Position numbers and translations under genes: made by a program. The notes under the pieces are model-generated. The model worked only from the letters and a program-made list of their open reading frames with translations, did no database searches and was not told where the DNA came from. Below are positions 5,019-12,539 of a stretch of DNA of 64,000 nucleotides, piece by piece; the stretch's first letter is position 1, and every line of letters starts with the position of its first letter. This DNA is from Desulfomonilia bacterium (GTDB taxonomy: Bacteria > Desulfobacterota > Desulfomonilia > UBA1062). The stretch lies in contig JBEKDT010000005.1 of the NCBI GenBank assembly GCA_050014195.1, forward strand, positions 128,001 through 192,000. Direction: 5' to 3'.

Positions 5019-5369
5019 TCAGAACAGCACCTTCGTACCACCGCTCTCACAGAGAAAGTGAACCTGGCTGAGAGCTTCCTTCATCCGGATTGCCTTTGCT
5101 ACCTCAGCATACAGCTTCTCTTCAATCGGCTCCACCGTGGAGACAGGCCTTTTGTCATGGCTGAAGCCGTTCCGAAGAGATCGGACATGGCCGGCCACCA
5201 CCGCATAGCCGCATCCGGCAAGCCCGCAACATGACCGGTCCGTTACTGCATATCCGACAAGATACAGGATCTTGCCTGTTCTATGGTCGAGTTCTTCTTC
5301 TTTTATGAAGAGATAATGGCCTCCAATCGCATCAACTTCTACCCCAAGTAAAGGATGTACAAATTCCAC
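5019..5369 (-). CDS. Hypothetical protein with SCCG--GC motif
   Basis: Open frame; probable GTG start at 5369 behind AAGGGGAG RBS (longer starts at 5417 or 5456 possible). Confidence 0.6.
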   Translation of the reverse strand: MEFVHPLLGVEVDAIGGHYLFIKEEELDHRTGKILYLVGYAVTDRSCCGLAGCGYAVVAGHVRSLRNGFSHDKRPVSTVEPIEEKLYAEVAKAIRMKEALSQVHFLCESGGTKVLF

Positions 5370-5579
5370 TGTCTCTCCCCTTATGACTTTCCCATGTCCT
5401 TTCTCATAGATGGCCATATCTTCAGTGATGTCAAGCCGATCATCGTGTTGCCACAATGCATTCCATGATTGTTATCTCTTGATAATCCGGTTAAAGTTTG
5501 TATACCGCTCCACCGATGAACCATATATCATGGCCTATAAAGGGTGCTGTACTATCCTCGGAAAGGTTTTGTTTAAGAG

Positions 5580-6614
5580 ATGAGCTTATTTGACAAGTTC
5601 TTCGGGCGTAATAAGGCATCCAAAGAGATCGCTGCCTGCGAAGCAGCGTTGGAGAAGCGCCCGAATGATACCATGATCCTCAAGAAGCTTGGGGACCTAT
5701 ACAACCAGGCGAACAATATCAAGAGCGCCTCCGATATATATGTCCGCCTCGGTGAGATCTACAGTGAGAAAGGGTTCTACCCCAAGGCCATTGCCTTGTA
5801 CAAACAGGCCATCAAAATAAACCCATCCTGGGAAGGGCCGTATGAGAAGCTTGCCGATCTCTACCAGGTGCAGGGATTTTCCCGGGAGGCAGCCACCCAG
5901 TATGTCAAGCTTGCCGAGATGCTCGAAAAGAATGGAGACAGTGTAGAAGCCACCATGTATATGCAAAAGGCCGCAGAGCTCGACCCGGCCATTACCCAAA
6001 TGAACAAGAAGGTCCAATCCTTCAAGGTGAAGGAAAAGGCCATGACGGAACCCATTCCCAAGGCCGTTCCCAAGCCTGATCTGGAACGTACTGATTTCTA
6101 TGATCTTAACAAGGAACTAGACAAGCAACTGGAAAAGGAAATAGAGGAGTTCTCCATCGATGAGACTTTCGAGGATACTGTTGATACCACCGGGGTAGAG
6201 TCCGTATTCAAAGCCATCGAGGAAAACACACCAAAGGAAGATAAAGATGACCCTCTATTCCAATACAATATGGGCCTTGCCTACCGGGAAACAGGGCTGC
6301 TGGATGAGGCCGTCGAGGCCTTTAAAAAGGTGATCGGTACAGGCGATAAACTCTACGATGCCTATGTCATGCTTGGGGTAACCTATCGCGAAAAGGGCCT
6401 TTTCAATGAGTCTCTTGATGCGTTTCGGCAGGCGGTATCCCTGAAAGAGGCATCTGCGGAAATGAAAGTCGGGATCCTTTACGAGACCGCACAGACTTAT
6501 AAGGCCCTGGGAGATAATCTGAATGCCTTGTCCATCTTCAGAGAGATTCAGAAAGAGCACAAGGAATTCAAAGATGTCGAGCTTGAAATAATCCGCCTGG
6601 CGGGTGGAGGATAA
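5580..6614 (+). CDS. Tetratricopeptide-repeat protein (N- and C-terminal TPR clusters, acidic linker; SgmX-like C-terminus)
   Basis: LGDLY, LGEIY...KAIALYKQA, QYNMGLAYRETGLLDEAVEAF TPR motifs. Confidence 0.85.
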   Translation: MSLFDKFFGRNKASKEIAACEAALEKRPNDTMILKKLGDLYNQANNIKSASDIYVRLGEIYSEKGFYPKAIALYKQAIKINPSWEGPYEKLADLYQVQGFSREAATQYVKLAEMLEKNGDSVEATMYMQKAAELDPAITQMNKKVQSFKVKEKAMTEPIPKAVPKPDLERTDFYDLNKELDKQLEKEIEEFSIDETFEDTVDTTGVESVFKAIEENTPKEDKDDPLFQYNMGLAYRETGLLDEAVEAFKKVIGTGDKLYDAYVMLGVTYREKGLFNESLDAFRQAVSLKEASAEMKVGILYETAQTYKALGDNLNALSIFREIQKEHKEFKDVELEIIRLAGGG

Positions 6615-6615
6615 T

Positions 6616-7632
6616 ATGGCCGTTATCAACTATTCAAAAAAGGAAATCTCCGCGAAGATCGTCTATTATGGCCCTTCCCTCTGTGGAAAGACCACAAACA
6701 TCCAGTCTATTTATGCCAGTATCAAGCCTGATCAAAAAGGTAAGCTTGTGTCACTGGCAACAGAGGCCGACCGTACTCTGTTCTTCGACTTCCTACCCAT
6801 AGAGATTGCAAACATCCGTGGTTTCAAAACCAGACTCCACTTCTATACCGTCCCCGGCCAGGTATATTACAATTCCACACGAAGGGCCGTGCTCACCGGT
6901 GTCGACGGCCTTGTATTCGTCGCCGACTCTCAGCGGGACAAGATGGAAGAAAACATCGAAAGCCTGAACAACTTGGAAGAGAACCTCAATTACTACGGGA
7001 AGAGTATCAAGACGATACCGATTGTGATCCAGTATAACAAAAGGGATCTTGCGGATGTACATCCGATTGCCGAAATGGAGCAGATCATCAATCCCTATGG
7101 ATACCCATCGTTCGAGTCGGTGGCCACCACCGGAGAAGGTGTTCTGGATACGCTCACCAAGATCACGAAAATGGTTCTCCAGCACATCGAGATGGGAACG
7201 AGCGGCAAGCAGCAGCGAACTGCACCAACGCCTCCGGAAAGACCTTCCCTTTCTCCGGGGCTGTCCCAACCAGGCCGGACCCAGCCAGGCATGCCTCAGA
7301 CCGGAATATCGCAACCGGGCTTATCCCCTCATGGCGCAACACAACCCGGTCCGTCCCAGCCTCCTGCTTCACCAAAGGCGCCGGAACCCTCTCCTGTGAG
7401 GCAACTGGAGCCGACCTTAGATCTGTCCAGGTTTAATGAACCAGAGCCTCTTTCCGGTGAACCCGTAACCAAGTCCGTTATAGGTAGGATTCAGATTGTG
7501 GGCACAGATAATGCAGAAATTATCTCGGCAAACGCTATCAGCATTCCAATACGGATAAAAATTGAGGGTGACATGAAGGTGTACAAGATGGACCTAGCCA
7601 TCAAGCTTGATGGCTTCAAACCCGAGGATTAA
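6616..7632 (+). CDS. mglA: MglA-family small GTPase with Pro/Gln-rich C-terminal extension
   Basis: KIVYYGPSLCGKTTN, RTLFFDFLP, YTVPGQV, VDGLVFVADSQ, QYNKRDL; GGAGGA RBS before ATG 6616. Confidence 0.92.
   Translation: MAVINYSKKEISAKIVYYGPSLCGKTTNIQSIYASIKPDQKGKLVSLATEADRTLFFDFLPIEIANIRGFKTRLHFYTVPGQVYYNSTRRAVLTGVDGLVFVADSQRDKMEENIESLNNLEENLNYYGKSIKTIPIVIQYNKRDLADVHPIAEMEQIINPYGYPSFESVATTGEGVLDTLTKITKMVLQHIEMGTSGKQQRTAPTPPERPSLSPGLSQPGRTQPGMPQTGISQPGLSPHGATQPGPSQPPASPKAPEPSPVRQLEPTLDLSRFNEPEPLSGEPVTKSVIGRIQIVGTDNAEIISANAISIPIRIKIEGDMKVYKMDLAIKLDGFKPED
7261..7365 (+). repeat. Seven degenerate 15-bp units encoding x-S/T-Q-P-G-like pentapeptides in the MglA tail
   Basis: LSQPG RTQPG MPQTG ISQPG LSPHG ATQPG PSQPP. 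Confidence 0.8.
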
Positions 7633-9133
7633 GGGTGTTCGAGCAGTGTCTATGCTCACGGGGATACTGCCGATAACCTTTCTCGAAGGGGTTCCCTTAT
7701 CTTGGCCCGTCATCAGTACAATCCTTGGGGATAGTTACTTTTTTGTCATTGCAACAACACTTTTGTCCATCTTCCTTATTGGTGTGTGCATGCTCATCAA
7801 GTACTCACCCCTTATGTTCAATGACCTTAAGAACTTTACCAACAATGAGATGCCGGACAAAGGCATCATCTTGTGGATAGTCTTTATCCTGCTCATACCT
7901 CTGTTCTTCAATGTCGGCCCCATGGTGCCCCTTCTCTGGTGGCTCTTCCTGCTGTGGGGGTACATGATCCCTGCTGAAAAGCGGATCACCTTCTTCTTCG
8001 TGTTCCTGACACTCATGTCCAGCTGGATTGCACATGTAGGGGCGGGTTTCATCACCTACACTGAGAACCAGCTTAACCTGCAGATCTATACTATCGAACA
8101 CAAGATTGCCAATGAAGCGGATACCGCTCAAATATCTTCATGGATCAAGACTCATCCTGCTGATGCAGAACCCATGAACGCCATGGCACTTATTGAGATT
8201 AATAGATCGAATTATAGTGATGCCATCAAGCTCCTCAACCAGGGAATCGATCTGGAACCCAACAATCCAAGATTCTACAATCACTTGGGCATCTCGTATC
8301 TCGGCTTGGGGAAAAGCAAAGAAGCATTGAAGTCATTCCAAAACGCCATCTCGCTCATGCCTGATAACATGATCTACCATTACAACGTAAGCAGGCTCTA
8401 CCAATCGACCTATAACTTCTATGAAGGGGAAAAGGCCATTGCCACTGCAAGCGGTCTTGATGCAGATGGGGTAAGGCGTCTTCTGGACGTAGAAAACGCT
8501 GCAGGGAGGACTCTGTATATCCAGGAATACACTCCGCTGTTGCTTCAACTCGCACGGCAGATGAGACCTTCGCAGGACCTAAAGGCCGCTGCCGACGCCC
8601 TGTGGACTTTTGCCTACGGCCTGTTTCCGAGAAAGGCGTCCGTTTTTCTGGCAATAGGAAGTTTTCTCATCTTCGTTATGTTAAGCTACATCCCCGATGA
8701 CAAATTCACCAAGCAGTGCAGCCGATGTGGAAAGCTGTATTATTCCGGCACCAAAACAAAAACCGGCAGCCCCATATGCCTCCAGTGCCATTGGATTGAT
8801 GTGAAAACAAAGAAACAGCAAGGGAGCATACTGCACCATAAGACCGAAGAGATCAGAAAATATAAGACACACAGTTATCAGAAACTGCTCCGGCTTGAGC
8901 TTATGCTGCCCGGTCTAGGCTCATTCCTGACCAACAAGACGGGTATCGGCCTGATCCGCATCGTCGTTTTAAGCGCTTCTCTCATGGCTATCCTAACCGG
9001 TGGACAGTTCATCATCTCTTTCATTCAGGTTCAAGTTGAGTTTACCACGATCGTCAGGATCACCGGTGTTATCTCCTTAGTGTTACTCTTGATAAGGGCT
9101 TACAAAGCCCCTCCGATCAGGTACGGGGTGTAA
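7607..9133 (+). CDS. Polytopic membrane protein with TPRs and a CxxC...CxxC zinc-ribbon motif (start may be 7652)
   Basis: Several hydrophobic helices, TPRs (FYNHLGISYLGLG), CSRCG...CLQC. Confidence 0.8.
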   Translation: MMASNPRIKGVRAVSMLTGILPITFLEGVPLSWPVISTILGDSYFFVIATTLLSIFLIGVCMLIKYSPLMFNDLKNFTNNEMPDKGIILWIVFILLIPLFFNVGPMVPLLWWLFLLWGYMIPAEKRITFFFVFLTLMSSWIAHVGAGFITYTENQLNLQIYTIEHKIANEADTAQISSWIKTHPADAEPMNAMALIEINRSNYSDAIKLLNQGIDLEPNNPRFYNHLGISYLGLGKSKEALKSFQNAISLMPDNMIYHYNVSRLYQSTYNFYEGEKAIATASGLDADGVRRLLDVENAAGRTLYIQEYTPLLLQLARQMRPSQDLKAAADALWTFAYGLFPRKASVFLAIGSFLIFVMLSYIPDDKFTKQCSRCGKLYYSGTKTKTGSPICLQCHWIDVKTKKQQGSILHHKTEEIRKYKTHSYQKLLRLELMLPGLGSFLTNKTGIGLIRIVVLSASLMAILTGGQFIISFIQVQVEFTTIVRITGVISLVLLLIRAYKAPPIRYGV

Positions 9134-9134
9134 C

Positions 9135-10103
9135 ATGGCATTGCTCGGGACGCTCAAAGGATTCGGGGTTACTGAGATCTTCCAGCTTATCTCCCAGCAG
9201 ATGAAGACAGGGGCACTGATCCTATCCTCACCTAAGGCTAATGTCACCATCACTTTTGAAAACGGGATCATCGTGGGCATAACCTCCGACCAGTGGGAAA
9301 GGGATCCTAGGGCCGATGTGCTGCTGAAAGCGGATTATGTCAACGATAAAGAGCTCAAGGCGGCATTCGAGAGCGAGAAGAAGAATTCTGAACGCTGGCA
9401 TGAGATATTGATCTCAAAAGGTCAGCTGAAAAAGATCTTCCTGGACCGGGCTACCACCGTCGTGATTAAGCAAATACTGCTTGAAGTGTTCCAGTGGAGA
9501 GAAGGAGGGTATAAGTTCGATGACTGGAACACCGAGTCAGAAAGTATGCTCTCCTGCCATATTCCCACTGAGGGAGCCATCCTTGACACATTACGCATCA
9601 TTGATGAATGGCCTACAATCAAGCAGAAGATACCTCCGGTGGATTATTGTCCTGTGACTATCATCCCCATCACCGAAGAGATCGTCCGCCATCACGATCT
9701 ATCGGACGTGGATATGCACATCTACGACTTGATTGATGAGAAACGGACCGTCGAGCGGATAGTAAAAGAATCGCTGGAGCCCCCCTTCGAGGCACTAAGC
9801 TCAATTGTCAGGCTCCTGGACATCGGGCTCGTGGAGGTCTTCCCAGAGGGCGCCAGGGACATACGTGATGTCGCAATCGCCCGGAACCTTTTTTTGAGCA
9901 AGATCAAACAGGTGGCTCTCTATGTCGTGCTCGTTCTCAGCATCTTCACACTCGTCATCATAGGCCAGCCCCGGATTACCAAAGGGGGGTTCATACCCAA
10001 GGAGATCAAGACATACCTTAACGACCAGAAGACGGTCCTGCAACGTTTCAGCGGGAAGCAGACAGCGCTTTCAATGACAGATACAAATAACTATGGCCAT
10101 TGA
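9135..10103 (+). CDS. DUF4388 (PatA N-terminal-like) domain protein with C-terminal TM helix
   Basis: MAL-GTLK-FG--EIFQLI--Q-KTG-L...F-W-EG-Y-F signature; LRIIDEW. Confidence 0.85.
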   Translation: MALLGTLKGFGVTEIFQLISQQMKTGALILSSPKANVTITFENGIIVGITSDQWERDPRADVLLKADYVNDKELKAAFESEKKNSERWHEILISKGQLKKIFLDRATTVVIKQILLEVFQWREGGYKFDDWNTESESMLSCHIPTEGAILDTLRIIDEWPTIKQKIPPVDYCPVTIIPITEEIVRHHDLSDVDMHIYDLIDEKRTVERIVKESLEPPFEALSSIVRLLDIGLVEVFPEGARDIRDVAIARNLFLSKIKQVALYVVLVLSIFTLVIIGQPRITKGGFIPKEIKTYLNDQKTVLQRFSGKQTALSMTDTNNYGH

Positions 10104-11739
10104 GGCGCATCTTCACGGGAGTAAAGGCTACATCGAGGTATCTTCCCCTTTCACAGATATCCGAGTCCACCGTACACCGTAGCGTGTGAAAGACCCGATT
10201 GGAATGTCTCAACACGAGTTTGGTCTGCCCGCCTTCAAAGACCCTCCGCCCAACGATCTCCATGGAGGGGATCAAGAACACCGGTTCCGGGTTACCCTCA
10301 CCGAATGGGGCAAGCAGTTCCAGTTCATCTAAAAAAGCCGGTGTGAGATCAAGGGGGGATATCTTGAGATCTACCTCGAATGTGGTTAGTTTCCGGTGCA
10401 TCTGAGAGCCGACGGCCTCATTAAGGGCCGGGGCTAACAACTCAATCTGTTCTTCAGAGATGCTCAAGCCCACGGCCATCTTGTGCCCTCCAAAACTGTT
10501 GAGAAGCCCTGTGGAATTGTTAAGGGCCCGGTGCAGGTCAATACCCACCAGCGACCTGCCTGAACCGATACCGATACCATCCATAAACGATATGACTATG
10601 GCGGGCCTGGAGAAAATGCTCACCAGCCGCGATGCCACGATTCCCAGGACACCGATGTGCCAGTTATTTCCCCAGACTACGGTCACGTTTTGCTCGGAGG
10701 GACGATCCCTCAATTGATCAAGCGCCATCACCAGGACTTTCTGCTCATGGATCTGTCTTTTCCTGTTCAAGCCGTCGAGTTCCTGAGCCAAGGCATGTGC
10801 CTTCTTCTCATCGTCTGTGGTGAGCAGGTCAAAGGCCTTTCTGGCATCCGATATCCTACCCGCCGCATTGATCCTTGGACCTAATATGAACCCCAGGTCG
10901 CGCGAGATGACCTCTTTCTTGATGCCGGCAACCTTCACCAGCGCTGAGATACCCACCCTCAACGATGAATTCATGACATTTAATCCCTCTTTAACGAGAA
11001 TGCGGTTCACCCCGGAAAGACTTACTGCATCGGCAACGGTGGCCATAGCAACAATATCGAGTTCATCCTTGAGGTTAGGCAGATCCTGCATGCCGCGCTC
11101 TCTGAGCAAGGAGCGCAATACTACGATAAGGTGGAATACGACCCCTGCACCGCAGAGATCTTCCCCGAAGAACAGACAATCACTCTGTTTGGGATTGATG
11201 AGAGAGTATGCATCAGGAACAAGCTCATCCACCTCGTGGTGGTCAGTGACGATCACATCCATTCCCAGCGAGTTTGCGTAGCTCACCTCATCAGTGGCCG
11301 TAATCCCGCAGTCGGCGGTGATGAGCAGGCTCACACCCCTGGCATGCAGTTCGTCGATCCCACGCATGTTAAGGCCATATCCGTCGGTGACACGGTCGGG
11401 TATGAAGATTATCGGCGGCTCACAGCCTATACCCACGAGGAAGCGGTGTATGAGCGCTGCGCTGCATACACCGTCCACATCGTAATCCGTAAAGACACCG
11501 ATGGTTTCTTTCTGATCAATAGCCCCTATGATTCGCTCGCATGCCTTCACTATCCCTTTCATGGACCGAGGGTCTTTGAGCTGACCGAGATTCGGCGCAA
11601 GAAAGTTCAGCACCTCTTTAGTATCCATCATCCCCCGGCCGCGCACGAGGGACCGAAAGGCCGGAGTGAACCTCAGGGACGGCAACGCAGTCTCATCGAC
11701 CTGCCCTCGGATCACCCATTCGGGAGATATACATATCAT
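10048..11739 (-). CDS. recJ: Single-stranded-DNA-specific exonuclease RecJ
   Basis: DYDVDG, DGYGL, TADCG, TDHH, GPRINAAGR, GSGRS, FGGH, PFGEGNPEP. Confidence 0.96.
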   Translation of the reverse strand: MICISPEWVIRGQVDETALPSLRFTPAFRSLVRGRGMMDTKEVLNFLAPNLGQLKDPRSMKGIVKACERIIGAIDQKETIGVFTDYDVDGVCSAALIHRFLVGIGCEPPIIFIPDRVTDGYGLNMRGIDELHARGVSLLITADCGITATDEVSYANSLGMDVIVTDHHEVDELVPDAYSLINPKQSDCLFFGEDLCGAGVVFHLIVVLRSLLRERGMQDLPNLKDELDIVAMATVADAVSLSGVNRILVKEGLNVMNSSLRVGISALVKVAGIKKEVISRDLGFILGPRINAAGRISDARKAFDLLTTDDEKKAHALAQELDGLNRKRQIHEQKVLVMALDQLRDRPSEQNVTVVWGNNWHIGVLGIVASRLVSIFSRPAIVISFMDGIGIGSGRSLVGIDLHRALNNSTGLLNSFGGHKMAVGLSISEEQIELLAPALNEAVGSQMHRKLTTFEVDLKISPLDLTPAFLDELELLAPFGEGNPEPVFLIPSMEIVGRRVFEGGQTKLVLRHSNRVFHTLRCTVDSDICERGRYLDVAFTPVKMRLNGHSYLYLSLKALSASR

Positions 11740-11771
11740 GCCTCTTTCCTTAACCCTGCTGCGGGAGTAAG

Positions 11772-12539
11772 TCAAGGAGGGCCGGCGAAGCTTATACAGC
11801 CTTCCAGCGCCTTTCTCGTGCGAGGCATGTCGACAGGCTTCACCTCCATGGTGATGGTTGAACCGTATCCCGTACCTAAGAGAGACGATACGATAGCCTG
11901 AAAATCAACACTCCCCTCTCCCAGGGCCAGATGCAGATCGTCCTTCACGCTTGTCCCCCCGTGGTTGTCATGAACGTGCACATGTGCAATCTTCTCGGGG
12001 CAGTTATCTATGAAGCGGTAAGACGTGTTCACCTTGGCCAGAAGCTGAGCATGGCCGATGTCCAAGGTCATCCTAAGATCGCCGATGGCCTCGAATGCGG
12101 CTTGGAAACTATCATAGCGTTCACTTAAATTTTCTATACAGATCACCATGCCCGCCTTTGATGCATAGCCTACCATCTCTTTAAGGAGTTCGAGCTTTTG
12201 AGGGATAAGTCCTTCCGGGGCCCATCTCTTATCGATCCAGAAATGCATGGTCGCCTTATCGATCCCCAGTTGCCTAGAGAGGTCTGTGAGAGCCTTAATC
12301 CTTGGTACGAAACGTTCTTTGAGGATGCCGATATCGAATGGGTTGTCTTCGTTGGGGAAATGGGCAAGATATGAAATGCCGTAGATTTCCTTCATTTCGA
12401 GAAGCGTAGGAATCCAGCGAAGAACCGTTTCCGGTTCATCCAGAGACATCTCAACAAAAGGCAGGCCGAGTCGCCCAACCTCATGAACCTCTGCTACGGT
12501 ATGTGCCCTTCCCCCGATGGTGACTACGCTTCTCTTCAT
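11772..12539 (-). CDS. Sugar-phosphate isomerase/epimerase (AP endonuclease 2 TIM-barrel family)
   Basis: IEN, TLDIGHA, HVHVHDN, DLHL-LGEG, ITMEV. Confidence 0.85.
   Translation of the reverse strand: MKRSVVTIGGRAHTVAEVHEVGRLGLPFVEMSLDEPETVLRWIPTLLEMKEIYGISYLAHFPNEDNPFDIGILKERFVPRIKALTDLSRQLGIDKATMHFWIDKRWAPEGLIPQKLELLKEMVGYASKAGMVICIENLSERYDSFQAAFEAIGDLRMTLDIGHAQLLAKVNTSYRFIDNCPEKIAHVHVHDNHGGTSVKDDLHLALGEGSVDFQAIVSSLLGTGYGSTITMEVKPVDMPRTRKALEGCISFAGPP

Follow-up and report, generated by a model that had tools for sequence, protein, structure and literature searches.

MglA is the model Ras-like polarity switch of bacteria, and its mode of action in the absence of MglB has been raised as a question for Bdellovibrio. 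The same question is posed by a four-gene locus in the genome of a Desulfomonilia bacterium (NCBI GenBank assembly GCA_050014195.1; 4.2 Mb in 29 contigs, completeness 100), located within a 64,000-nucleotide stretch of contig JBEKDT010000005.1 (C5:128001-192000) which is referred to below as the window. On the forward strand, at positions 5580-10103 of the window, four open reading frames (ORFs) encode a tetratricopeptide repeat (TPR) protein, an MglA-family GTPase, a membrane TPR protein and a protein with a PATAN (DUF4388) domain, and no gene for MglB, the Roadblock-family GTPase-activating protein (GAP) of MglA, is found at the locus. The four genes form a genuine, strongly conserved operon, and this module is a variant of the MglA-SgmX system of cell-polarity and pilus control. 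The explanation favoured on balance is an MglB-independent switch, composed of MglA and a short SgmX-like protein (mini-SgmX), which is tethered at the inner membrane and probably acts on type IV pili.

The tight coupling of the four genes noted in a first-pass annotation, which was made from the sequence alone, is evident in intergenic gaps of 1 nucleotide (nt) between the TPR gene and mglA, 19 nt between mglA and the membrane TPR gene and 1 nt between the latter and the PATAN gene. At its 3' end the PATAN gene runs into a convergent recJ-like ORF (10048-11775), with which it overlaps, and no terminator-like or promoter-like sites were found on the forward strand inside 5300-10400, in a scan that is weak either way. 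The four genes are a single operon and very likely act together. Near-identical DNA occurs in peat and wetland metagenomes (24 runs, all of DNA and none of RNA).

The four-gene order, whose co-conservation had been suggested as a test of the module, is present in 47/47 related loci where the contig allows, and Ser is likewise found at residue 21 of the GTPase in 47/47. These close loci share flanks (recJ, ABC ATPase) and do not represent independent evidence, and a wider survey of 301 genomes of the phylum was therefore undertaken. An MglA match could be identified in 171/301 genomes, many of which carry a long-ORF paralogue beside a short one. Profile classification of 60 long-MglA loci, fetched from among the matches listed (117 further matches lie outside them), distinguished 29 module loci, two partial loci with the TPR and MglA genes only (L059 and L120) and 29 loci of another long-MglA type. 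The module loci incorporate a TPR gene upstream, and membrane TPR and PATAN genes downstream, of the long mglA as far as contig ends permit (these truncate L105, L110 and L111), and span six coded families (f1, f10, f35, f37, f53 and f58). In the distant module loci the partner proteins share 16-35 % identity with those of the window and the flanks differ, with RecJ not found in those loci whose other flank was checked. Co-conservation of the order thus extends across six families with strongly diverged partners. All of the module carriers found are uncultured metagenome-assembled genomes (MAGs), which sets a practical limit.

A separate scan with a PATAN sub-alignment retrieved 53 loci, comprising 19 full modules, 29 membrane TPR-PATAN pairs and five loci cut by contig ends. 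The full modules occur in MAGs labelled as Thermodesulfobacteriota, 'delta proteobacterium' or, in one case, unclassified bacterium. The pair-only loci (L153-L168, L170, L171, L173, L175-L183 and L185) are derived from MAGs labelled as Myxococcaceae/Myxococcota, Thermoanaerobaculia/Holophagales, one Chloroflexia and some as delta proteobacterium or unclassified. From the comparison of these loci with the full modules, genes 3 and 4 are therefore an older two-gene unit, which was joined in this phylum to the TPR-MglA pair. Locus L161, labelled Myxococcaceae, encodes a longer homologue of gene 3 (693 amino acids (aa)), which begins with a signal-peptide-like segment.

The GTPase encoded by gene 2 is colinear over residues 1-195 with Myxococcus xanthus MglA (5ymx_A; E = 4.2e-70), with approximately 60 % identity in the G domain. 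Both GxxxxGKT and NKRD are present, placing the protein in the MglA family, as is Thr78, which as an MglA hallmark replaces the usual Asp of DxxGQ (PMC3000849). Direct reading of the sequence and the alignment agree with the first-pass annotation that the P-loop (G19-P-S-L-C-G-K-T) carries Ser21 and that R53 (TEADRTLFFD) and Q82 (YTVPGQ) are retained. The protein had also been read as an ordinary MglA, which it is not: in place of a single domain of approximately 195 aa it has 338 aa, with a 143-aa extension beyond the G domain, and the full length is conserved in 45/45 complete orthologues (287-396 aa). The extension consists of a linker and a C-terminal mini-domain, the latter modelled with a predicted local distance difference test score (pLDDT) of 86-90 and with strands at residues 292-297, 301-304, 307-316 and 322-330. 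Conserved columns in the mini-domain are G290, I292, T297, N306, P311, A328, K330 and D332. A database search with the mini-domain yielded MglA-like proteins only (51/51 matches; 186-384 aa), and a similar C-terminal tail is found on long MglAs from other families. The full-length model has a mean pLDDT of 51, and in a wide fold search it was matched over the G domain only (5ymx_A; Z = 9.4, root mean square deviation 4.9, 185 aligned residues). In a quick maximum likelihood tree, midpoint-rooted for drawing only, all module and partial MglAs form one group (SH-aLRT support 94) and the canonical MglAs another (100). The gene 2 product is thus a distinct 'long MglA' paralogue rather than a canonical MglA that lost its GAP. 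Genome G197 (f37) encodes a pair of module-clade long MglAs, each with Gly21; that at L102 is part of a full module and that at L120 has only a mini-SgmX gene upstream.

The protein encoded directly upstream of mglA consists entirely of TPRs, with multiple TPR Pfam matches and no transmembrane (TM) helix in a hydropathy scan, and is arranged as two TPR blocks, N- and C-terminal, on either side of an acidic linker. Its top NCBIfam family is SgmX (NF052243; E = 2.4e-31, 108.9 bits), with a score far below the 1800-bit cut-off for full-length members. The N-terminal half aligns with positions 21-158 of the SgmX profile and the C-terminal half with positions 826-1015 (E = 6e-12), a positional match that is suggestive only, given that TPRs cross-match readily. 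The SgmX model is matched by 29/29 gene 1 orthologues (best E = 7e-37), as is, more weakly, the MamA model. The TPR gene reported upstream of mglA in the first-pass annotation is hence present and, more specifically, SgmX-like. In M. xanthus SgmX, the C-terminal TPR12-14 bind MglA-GTP and the TPRs upstream of these activate the pilus (PMC7668184), and SgmX is homologous to Bd2492 of Bdellovibrio (PMC7519303). The alignment thus suggests that gene 1 encodes a mini-SgmX which retains both functional ends of SgmX. Within the linker, an F-[FY]-D-L..EL motif (6097-6120, aa 174-180; FYDL in the window, with F174-D175-L176 and L180) is near-invariant among the 29 orthologues of six families, whereas the surrounding acidic linker is otherwise unconserved, and from its sequence the motif looks like a short linear binding motif.

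Contact between the two proteins was examined by complex prediction, using the TPR protein, PATAN residues 1-240 and GTP, with MglA residues 1-200 as the scored partner. A score of 0.43 was obtained, which constitutes weak support, compared with 0.01 for the best of three controls; agreement between runs covers 67 % of contacts or more, and the partner pLDDT is 80 or higher. The pass mark is reached by 58/80 solved complexes and 2/110 mismatched pairs, and at scores of 0.60 or below by 7/80 solved complexes and both of the passing mismatches, although the custom alignments and the accompanying GTP ligand make these calibration counts rough. Replacement of the TPR chain by itself lowered the score to 0.01, and the contact predicted for MglA is accordingly taken to be with the TPR protein. 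These two proteins are likely an effector pair. For binding of MglA to the PATAN protein, the same replacement, in which the PATAN chain was kept, provides neither support nor evidence against contact.

Gene 3 encodes a membrane protein whose start was placed with some doubt, since the two closest relatives (L006 and L007) have an in-frame stop in the leader that follows TTG 7607; this start is thus probably wrong and ATG 7652 is the likelier one. Hydropathy analysis indicates some four TM helices at the N terminus, a TPR region at approximately aa 175-270, one further TM helix and two C-terminal TM helices, with a zinc-ribbon-like CxxC-19-CxxC motif (Cys motifs at aa 356 and 376) ahead of the C-terminal pair. 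Besides TPR matches, Pfam returned a weak match to Wzy_C_2 (E = 6.4e-4; 20.2 bits, below the cut-off of 28.5), and the ESM Atlas returned TPR clusters only, the top one of which may be the protein's own and serves as a lead only.

The gene 4 product belongs to PF14332 (DUF4388; residues 5-159, E = 1.1e-21, score 77.6 bits with a cut-off of 25) and matches no other Pfam family, and no receiver (REC) domain was detected. The model (pLDDT 76) comprises a PATAN core with a helical insert (aa 1-163) and a winged helix (aa ~171-237), followed by a C-terminal TM anchor predicted by hydropathy at aa ~259-277. Many winged-helix chains match the model with Z scores of 6-10, in each case over residues 163-238, and a Foldseek search of the model against PDB gave no match at E ≤ 0.001, its weak top rows being GATOR1 subunits. 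A cryptic Roadblock or longin domain in the PATAN core was considered and is unsupported, in a wide search whose rows all cover residues 163-238 and which barely probed the core. Elsewhere in the genome, two further DUF4388/PATAN genes lie no more than approximately 2 kb apart (C2:64071-66300) and a fourth on C19, and a weak GTPase-like match (E = 0.003; C2:80901-81161) lies about 15 kb from the C2 PATAN genes.

Table. Coordinates of the four genes of the module and of the parts of gene 2, numbered from the first position of the window
Feature	Position	Strand	Basis
Gene 1, cytoplasmic TPR protein 'mini-SgmX', 344 aa	5580..6614	+	TPR Pfam and SgmX NF052243 matches
Gene 2, long MglA-family GTPase, 338 aa	6616..7632	+	M. 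xanthus MglA alignment; GGAGG 6 nt before ATG 6616
Gene 2 G domain, aa 1-195, with R53, T78, Q82 and NKRD (G4)	6616..7200	+	Alignment
Gene 2 codon 21, TCC (Ser); Gly in canonical MglA	6676..6678	+	Sequence read directly
Gene 2 Pro-rich linker, aa 196-289, variable length, predicted disordered	7201..7482	+	Gapped, unconserved alignment; pLDDT <50
Gene 2 C-terminal mini-domain, four beta strands, aa ~290-335	7483..7620	+	Model and conserved columns
Gene 3, polytopic membrane TPR protein, 493 aa	7652..9133	+	TPR matches, hydropathy; alternative start TTG 7607
Gene 4, PATAN (DUF4388) protein, 322 aa	9135..10103	+	PF14332, model, TM helix

The lack of MglB extends beyond the locus. A search of the genome with PF03259 gave a best E of 0.56, and a profile constructed from 17 MglB proteins of the same phylum, whose genes immediately precede canonical mglA, reached no better than E = 0.21 against 36,924 six-frame ORFs of the genome with filters off, so that the absence of an mglB gene claimed earlier holds genome-wide with both profiles. 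Roadblock matches occur in 138/301 genomes of the phylum, but in only 1/30 module genomes as compared with 137/271 others, among which some module genomes may be counted where their loci were not fetched. In the lone module genome with a match (G135), two Roadblock genes flank a second, short MglA. No match was found in the three other genomes of the same family as the window's, and no Roadblock gene is located near the long MglA at any of the 60 loci. The canonical short MglAs of the phylum, in the rows displayed, have Gly21 and are preceded directly by mglB.

A second full-length MglA was not found in the genome, and neither was the Gly21 copy that had been proposed as worth seeking. The sole extra copy is an MglA-like ORF of 137 aa on the reverse strand of contig C12 (G000 C12:11162-11572; L004:1486-1899, reverse strand), with GPSLSGKT as its P-loop and no G4/G5 motif. 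An orthologue occurs in 1/12 other genomes of the genus, with an open frame of 228 aa and 90 % identity. As a Gly21 partner GTPase this ORF was rejected, being truncated, with Ser in its P-loop and a rare orthologue. It is situated between genes for an HD-GYP-type response regulator and a histidine kinase and overlaps the start of the latter.

At residue 21, the 30 module rows, the window included, have Ala in 19, Ser in five and Gly in six, the last all belonging to family f37. Ser21 appears twice on the module tree, in f1 and in L063. Of the covariation of Ser21 with MglB absence proposed in the first-pass annotation, the invariance of Ser21 in the close loci stands, whereas Ser21 is not a hallmark of the module and residue 21 is only loosely tied to the loss of MglB. 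In Ras, the G12A substitution blunts GAP-stimulated hydrolysis. Substitutions of Ras G12 have been considered analogous to changes at MglA residue 21, and Milner et al. report five MglB-less species with Ala or Ser at this position and four with Gly21 (PMC3983030). The presence of Ala, Ser and Gly in one orthologous MglB-free setting makes this 'oncogenic' position directly testable by swaps.

In the mechanism that we favour, MglA-GTP would bind the C-terminal TPR block of mini-SgmX, as MglA-GTP of M. xanthus binds TPR12-14 of SgmX, and the membrane pair encoded by genes 3 and 4 would fix the resulting complex at the inner membrane, with the base of the type IVa pilus machine as the likeliest site. 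The N-terminal block of mini-SgmX and the PATAN domain may then act on the PilB/PilC motor. The PATAN domains of Synechocystis are membrane-localised and bind the N-terminal domains of PilB1 and PilC (bioRxiv 10.1101/2021.06.11.447907), and in M. xanthus two PATAN proteins were on the candidate list which yielded SopA, an SgmX partner (PMC11580455). Three PilB-size ATPases, several PilT-size ATPases and PilM are encoded in the genome, and pili are a plausible, if not a confidently assigned, output of the module. Given the Ser or Ala at residue 21 of most lineages and the lack of MglB, the switch would be expected to hydrolyse GTP slowly and to be mostly GTP-bound, and its control would lie in tethering, localisation or abundance instead of a Roadblock GAP; a GAP-independent or mostly GTP-bound state is put forward tentatively and is somewhat doubtful.

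Several observations weigh against this tethered, MglB-independent switch. R53 and Q82, the catalytic residues positioned by MglB, remain conserved in the long MglAs (38 diverse MglA sequences, module types included, all have Q82, and conservation of R53 among them is 90 % or higher), which argues that hydrolysis still matters and that another activator may exist. The six Gly21 module MglAs of f37 are likewise found in genomes without Roadblock matches, and MglB independence therefore does not hinge on residue 21. Furthermore, the 30 module genomes belong to six families only, so that the Roadblock contrast reflects few independent events, and the complex score is a weak pass. At 29 loci the membrane TPR-PATAN pair stands without an adjacent MglA or mini-SgmX gene and would thus be able to work apart from the GTPase, and the TPRs of gene 3 may face the periplasm. 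No pilus gene occurs within the window, with one PilB-size ATPase encoded on the same contig approximately 26 kb upstream and the others, as well as PilM, on different contigs. PilM_2 is found in 29/30 module genomes (G254 has no match) but also in 230/271 other genomes; it fits a pilus role but hardly discriminates between them.

The conserved catalytic residues and the Gly21 lineages would also fit a GTPase that cycles normally, with the GAP and/or guanine nucleotide exchange factor role of MglB and RomR/RomX taken over by a part of the module, be it the mini-domain in cis, the PATAN-winged-helix protein or mini-SgmX. The confinement of the mini-domain to MglA-like proteins and the tight linkage of the four genes across six families are further points in favour of this explanation, which is nevertheless unlikely: no structural or sequence signature of a GAP was found, the PATAN searches returning a winged helix only, and by analogy with Ras G12 the Ala or Ser21 of 24/30 module rows would be expected to blunt GAP-stimulated hydrolysis. 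Rather improbable is the combination in which such a module-encoded, non-Roadblock regulator replaces MglB within a membrane-tethered GTPase unit; if true, it would constitute a second, non-Roadblock control route for bacterial Ras-like GTPases and also the first MglA-SgmX-PATAN pathway to be genetically hard-wired to the pilus motor, conserved in at least six Thermodesulfobacteriota families. An ordinary MglA, with an MglB that has simply diverged, escaped assembly or is encoded at a distance, is very improbable. Although the assembly is in 29 contigs and the highly divergent MglB of Bacteriovorax indicates that MglB can drift (PMC3983030), the completeness is 100, neither profile recovered a candidate, Roadblock matches occur in 0/3 other family members and are missing from all but one module genome, and the protein is placed in a distinct paralogue group that has a domain architecture of its own. 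A different output is also conceivable, in which the module serves as a polarity or landmark device for a non-pilus envelope process such as secretion or outer-membrane assembly, polysaccharide export or cell division. The location of Bd2492 in a TamAB-like operon (PMC3983030), the weak Wzy_C_2 match of gene 3, a family matched at the C-terminal part of membrane polymerases, the lack of a pilus gene adjoining the module and the occurrence of the membrane TPR-PATAN pair alone in Myxococcota-labelled and Acidobacteriota-type MAGs are consistent with such a role. It is also judged unlikely, however, as the best family of gene 1 and all 29 of its orthologues is the pilus activator SgmX, PilM_2 is present in nearly all module genomes and, in the literature searched, binding to pilus motor parts is the only PATAN function tested.

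The other long-MglA type (L053, L054, L062, L065, L066, L068, L069, L071, L072, L113-L119 and L123-L132) is characterised by Gly21, the P-loop GPGLSGKTT and, in 28/29 loci, VPGQ[VI]F (VH in L123), and has no TPR or PATAN neighbours; in L057, L070 and L121 Ala21 occurs in place of Gly21. These proteins carry the same kind of disordered linker and small C-terminal beta segment. Among 11 mapped loci, several encode a protein of approximately 350-425 aa with a shared N-terminal sequence directly upstream, while an EF-G-like GTPase of approximately 695 aa is encoded nearby in four (L053, L054, L065 and L072). Genomes with this type usually also hold a canonical mglBA pair. Next to the module in the window, a divergent ORF on the reverse strand (5019-5456; 145 aa) has no Pfam or NCBIfam match, and its position upstream of the module is syntenic in most close relatives.

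Compared with known systems, the module shares with the MglA-MglB-RomR/RomX and SgmX system of M. xanthus a GTPase of the same family with R53, T78 and Q82, and a TPR-only cytoplasmic partner which matches the pilus-activating N-terminal and MglA-binding C-terminal parts of SgmX. It differs in having no MglB, Ser21 in place of Gly21, a GTPase with a linker and beta mini-domain, and an SgmX-like protein of 344 aa as opposed to approximately 1,060 aa. The M. xanthus mglBA and sgmX genes occupy separate loci, whereas the partners are here encoded in one operon with two membrane proteins. PATAN proteins have been linked to SgmX in M. xanthus as well (PMC11580455).

A parallel in residue 21 and gene loss is Bdellovibrio bacteriovorus, with which the module shares Ser21, the loss of mglB and a short SgmX-related TPR partner. 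The MglA of Bdellovibrio is a short single-domain protein, and neither a membrane TPR nor a PATAN partner has been reported there. As stated in the first-pass annotation, it has S21, no MglB and a TPR partner; the latter is Bd2492 (353 aa), which binds MglA (PMC3983030). The gene for Bd2492 lies in a TamAB-like operon away from mglA (PMC3983030), while the TPR gene of the module adjoins mglA and its product matches the C-terminal part of SgmX in addition. Orphan MglAs (SofG), which make up 59/449 MglA homologues without a neighbouring MglB (PMC4316618), are similarly uncoupled from MglB; that survey sets the orphans aside, and in its available parts no mini-domain, TPR neighbour or four-gene order is described. 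MglA-PATAN and MglB-PATAN neighbourhoods are already in print (PMC4316618, citing Makarova et al. 2006), with Group 1 and Group 5 MglA genes occasionally found near PATAN genes (PMC4316618). The literature search recovered no account of the long MglA and its mini-domain, nor of mini-SgmX or the four-gene order, although loci of this kind may be listed in the supplementary tables of PMC4316618. The proposal that the module could be an undescribed signalling system is accordingly too strong, as it is a variant of the MglA-SgmX axis, and both the PATAN link and MglB-less species with Ala or Ser21 have been published.

With the cyanobacterial PatA-type regulators (PixE and PixG among others) the module shares a PATAN domain with a helical insert. 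The module protein lacks their receiver domain and has a winged helix and a TM anchor, and its gene is linked with that of a small GTPase instead of with a chemosensory system. For an MglB-less MglA, the module provides a natural set of parts encoded in one operon, comprising a minimal SgmX, a PATAN protein, a membrane partner and an MglA-specific C-terminal domain, and its PATAN protein ties the link between PATAN domains and the pilus motor of cyanobacteria to the MglA-SgmX axis.

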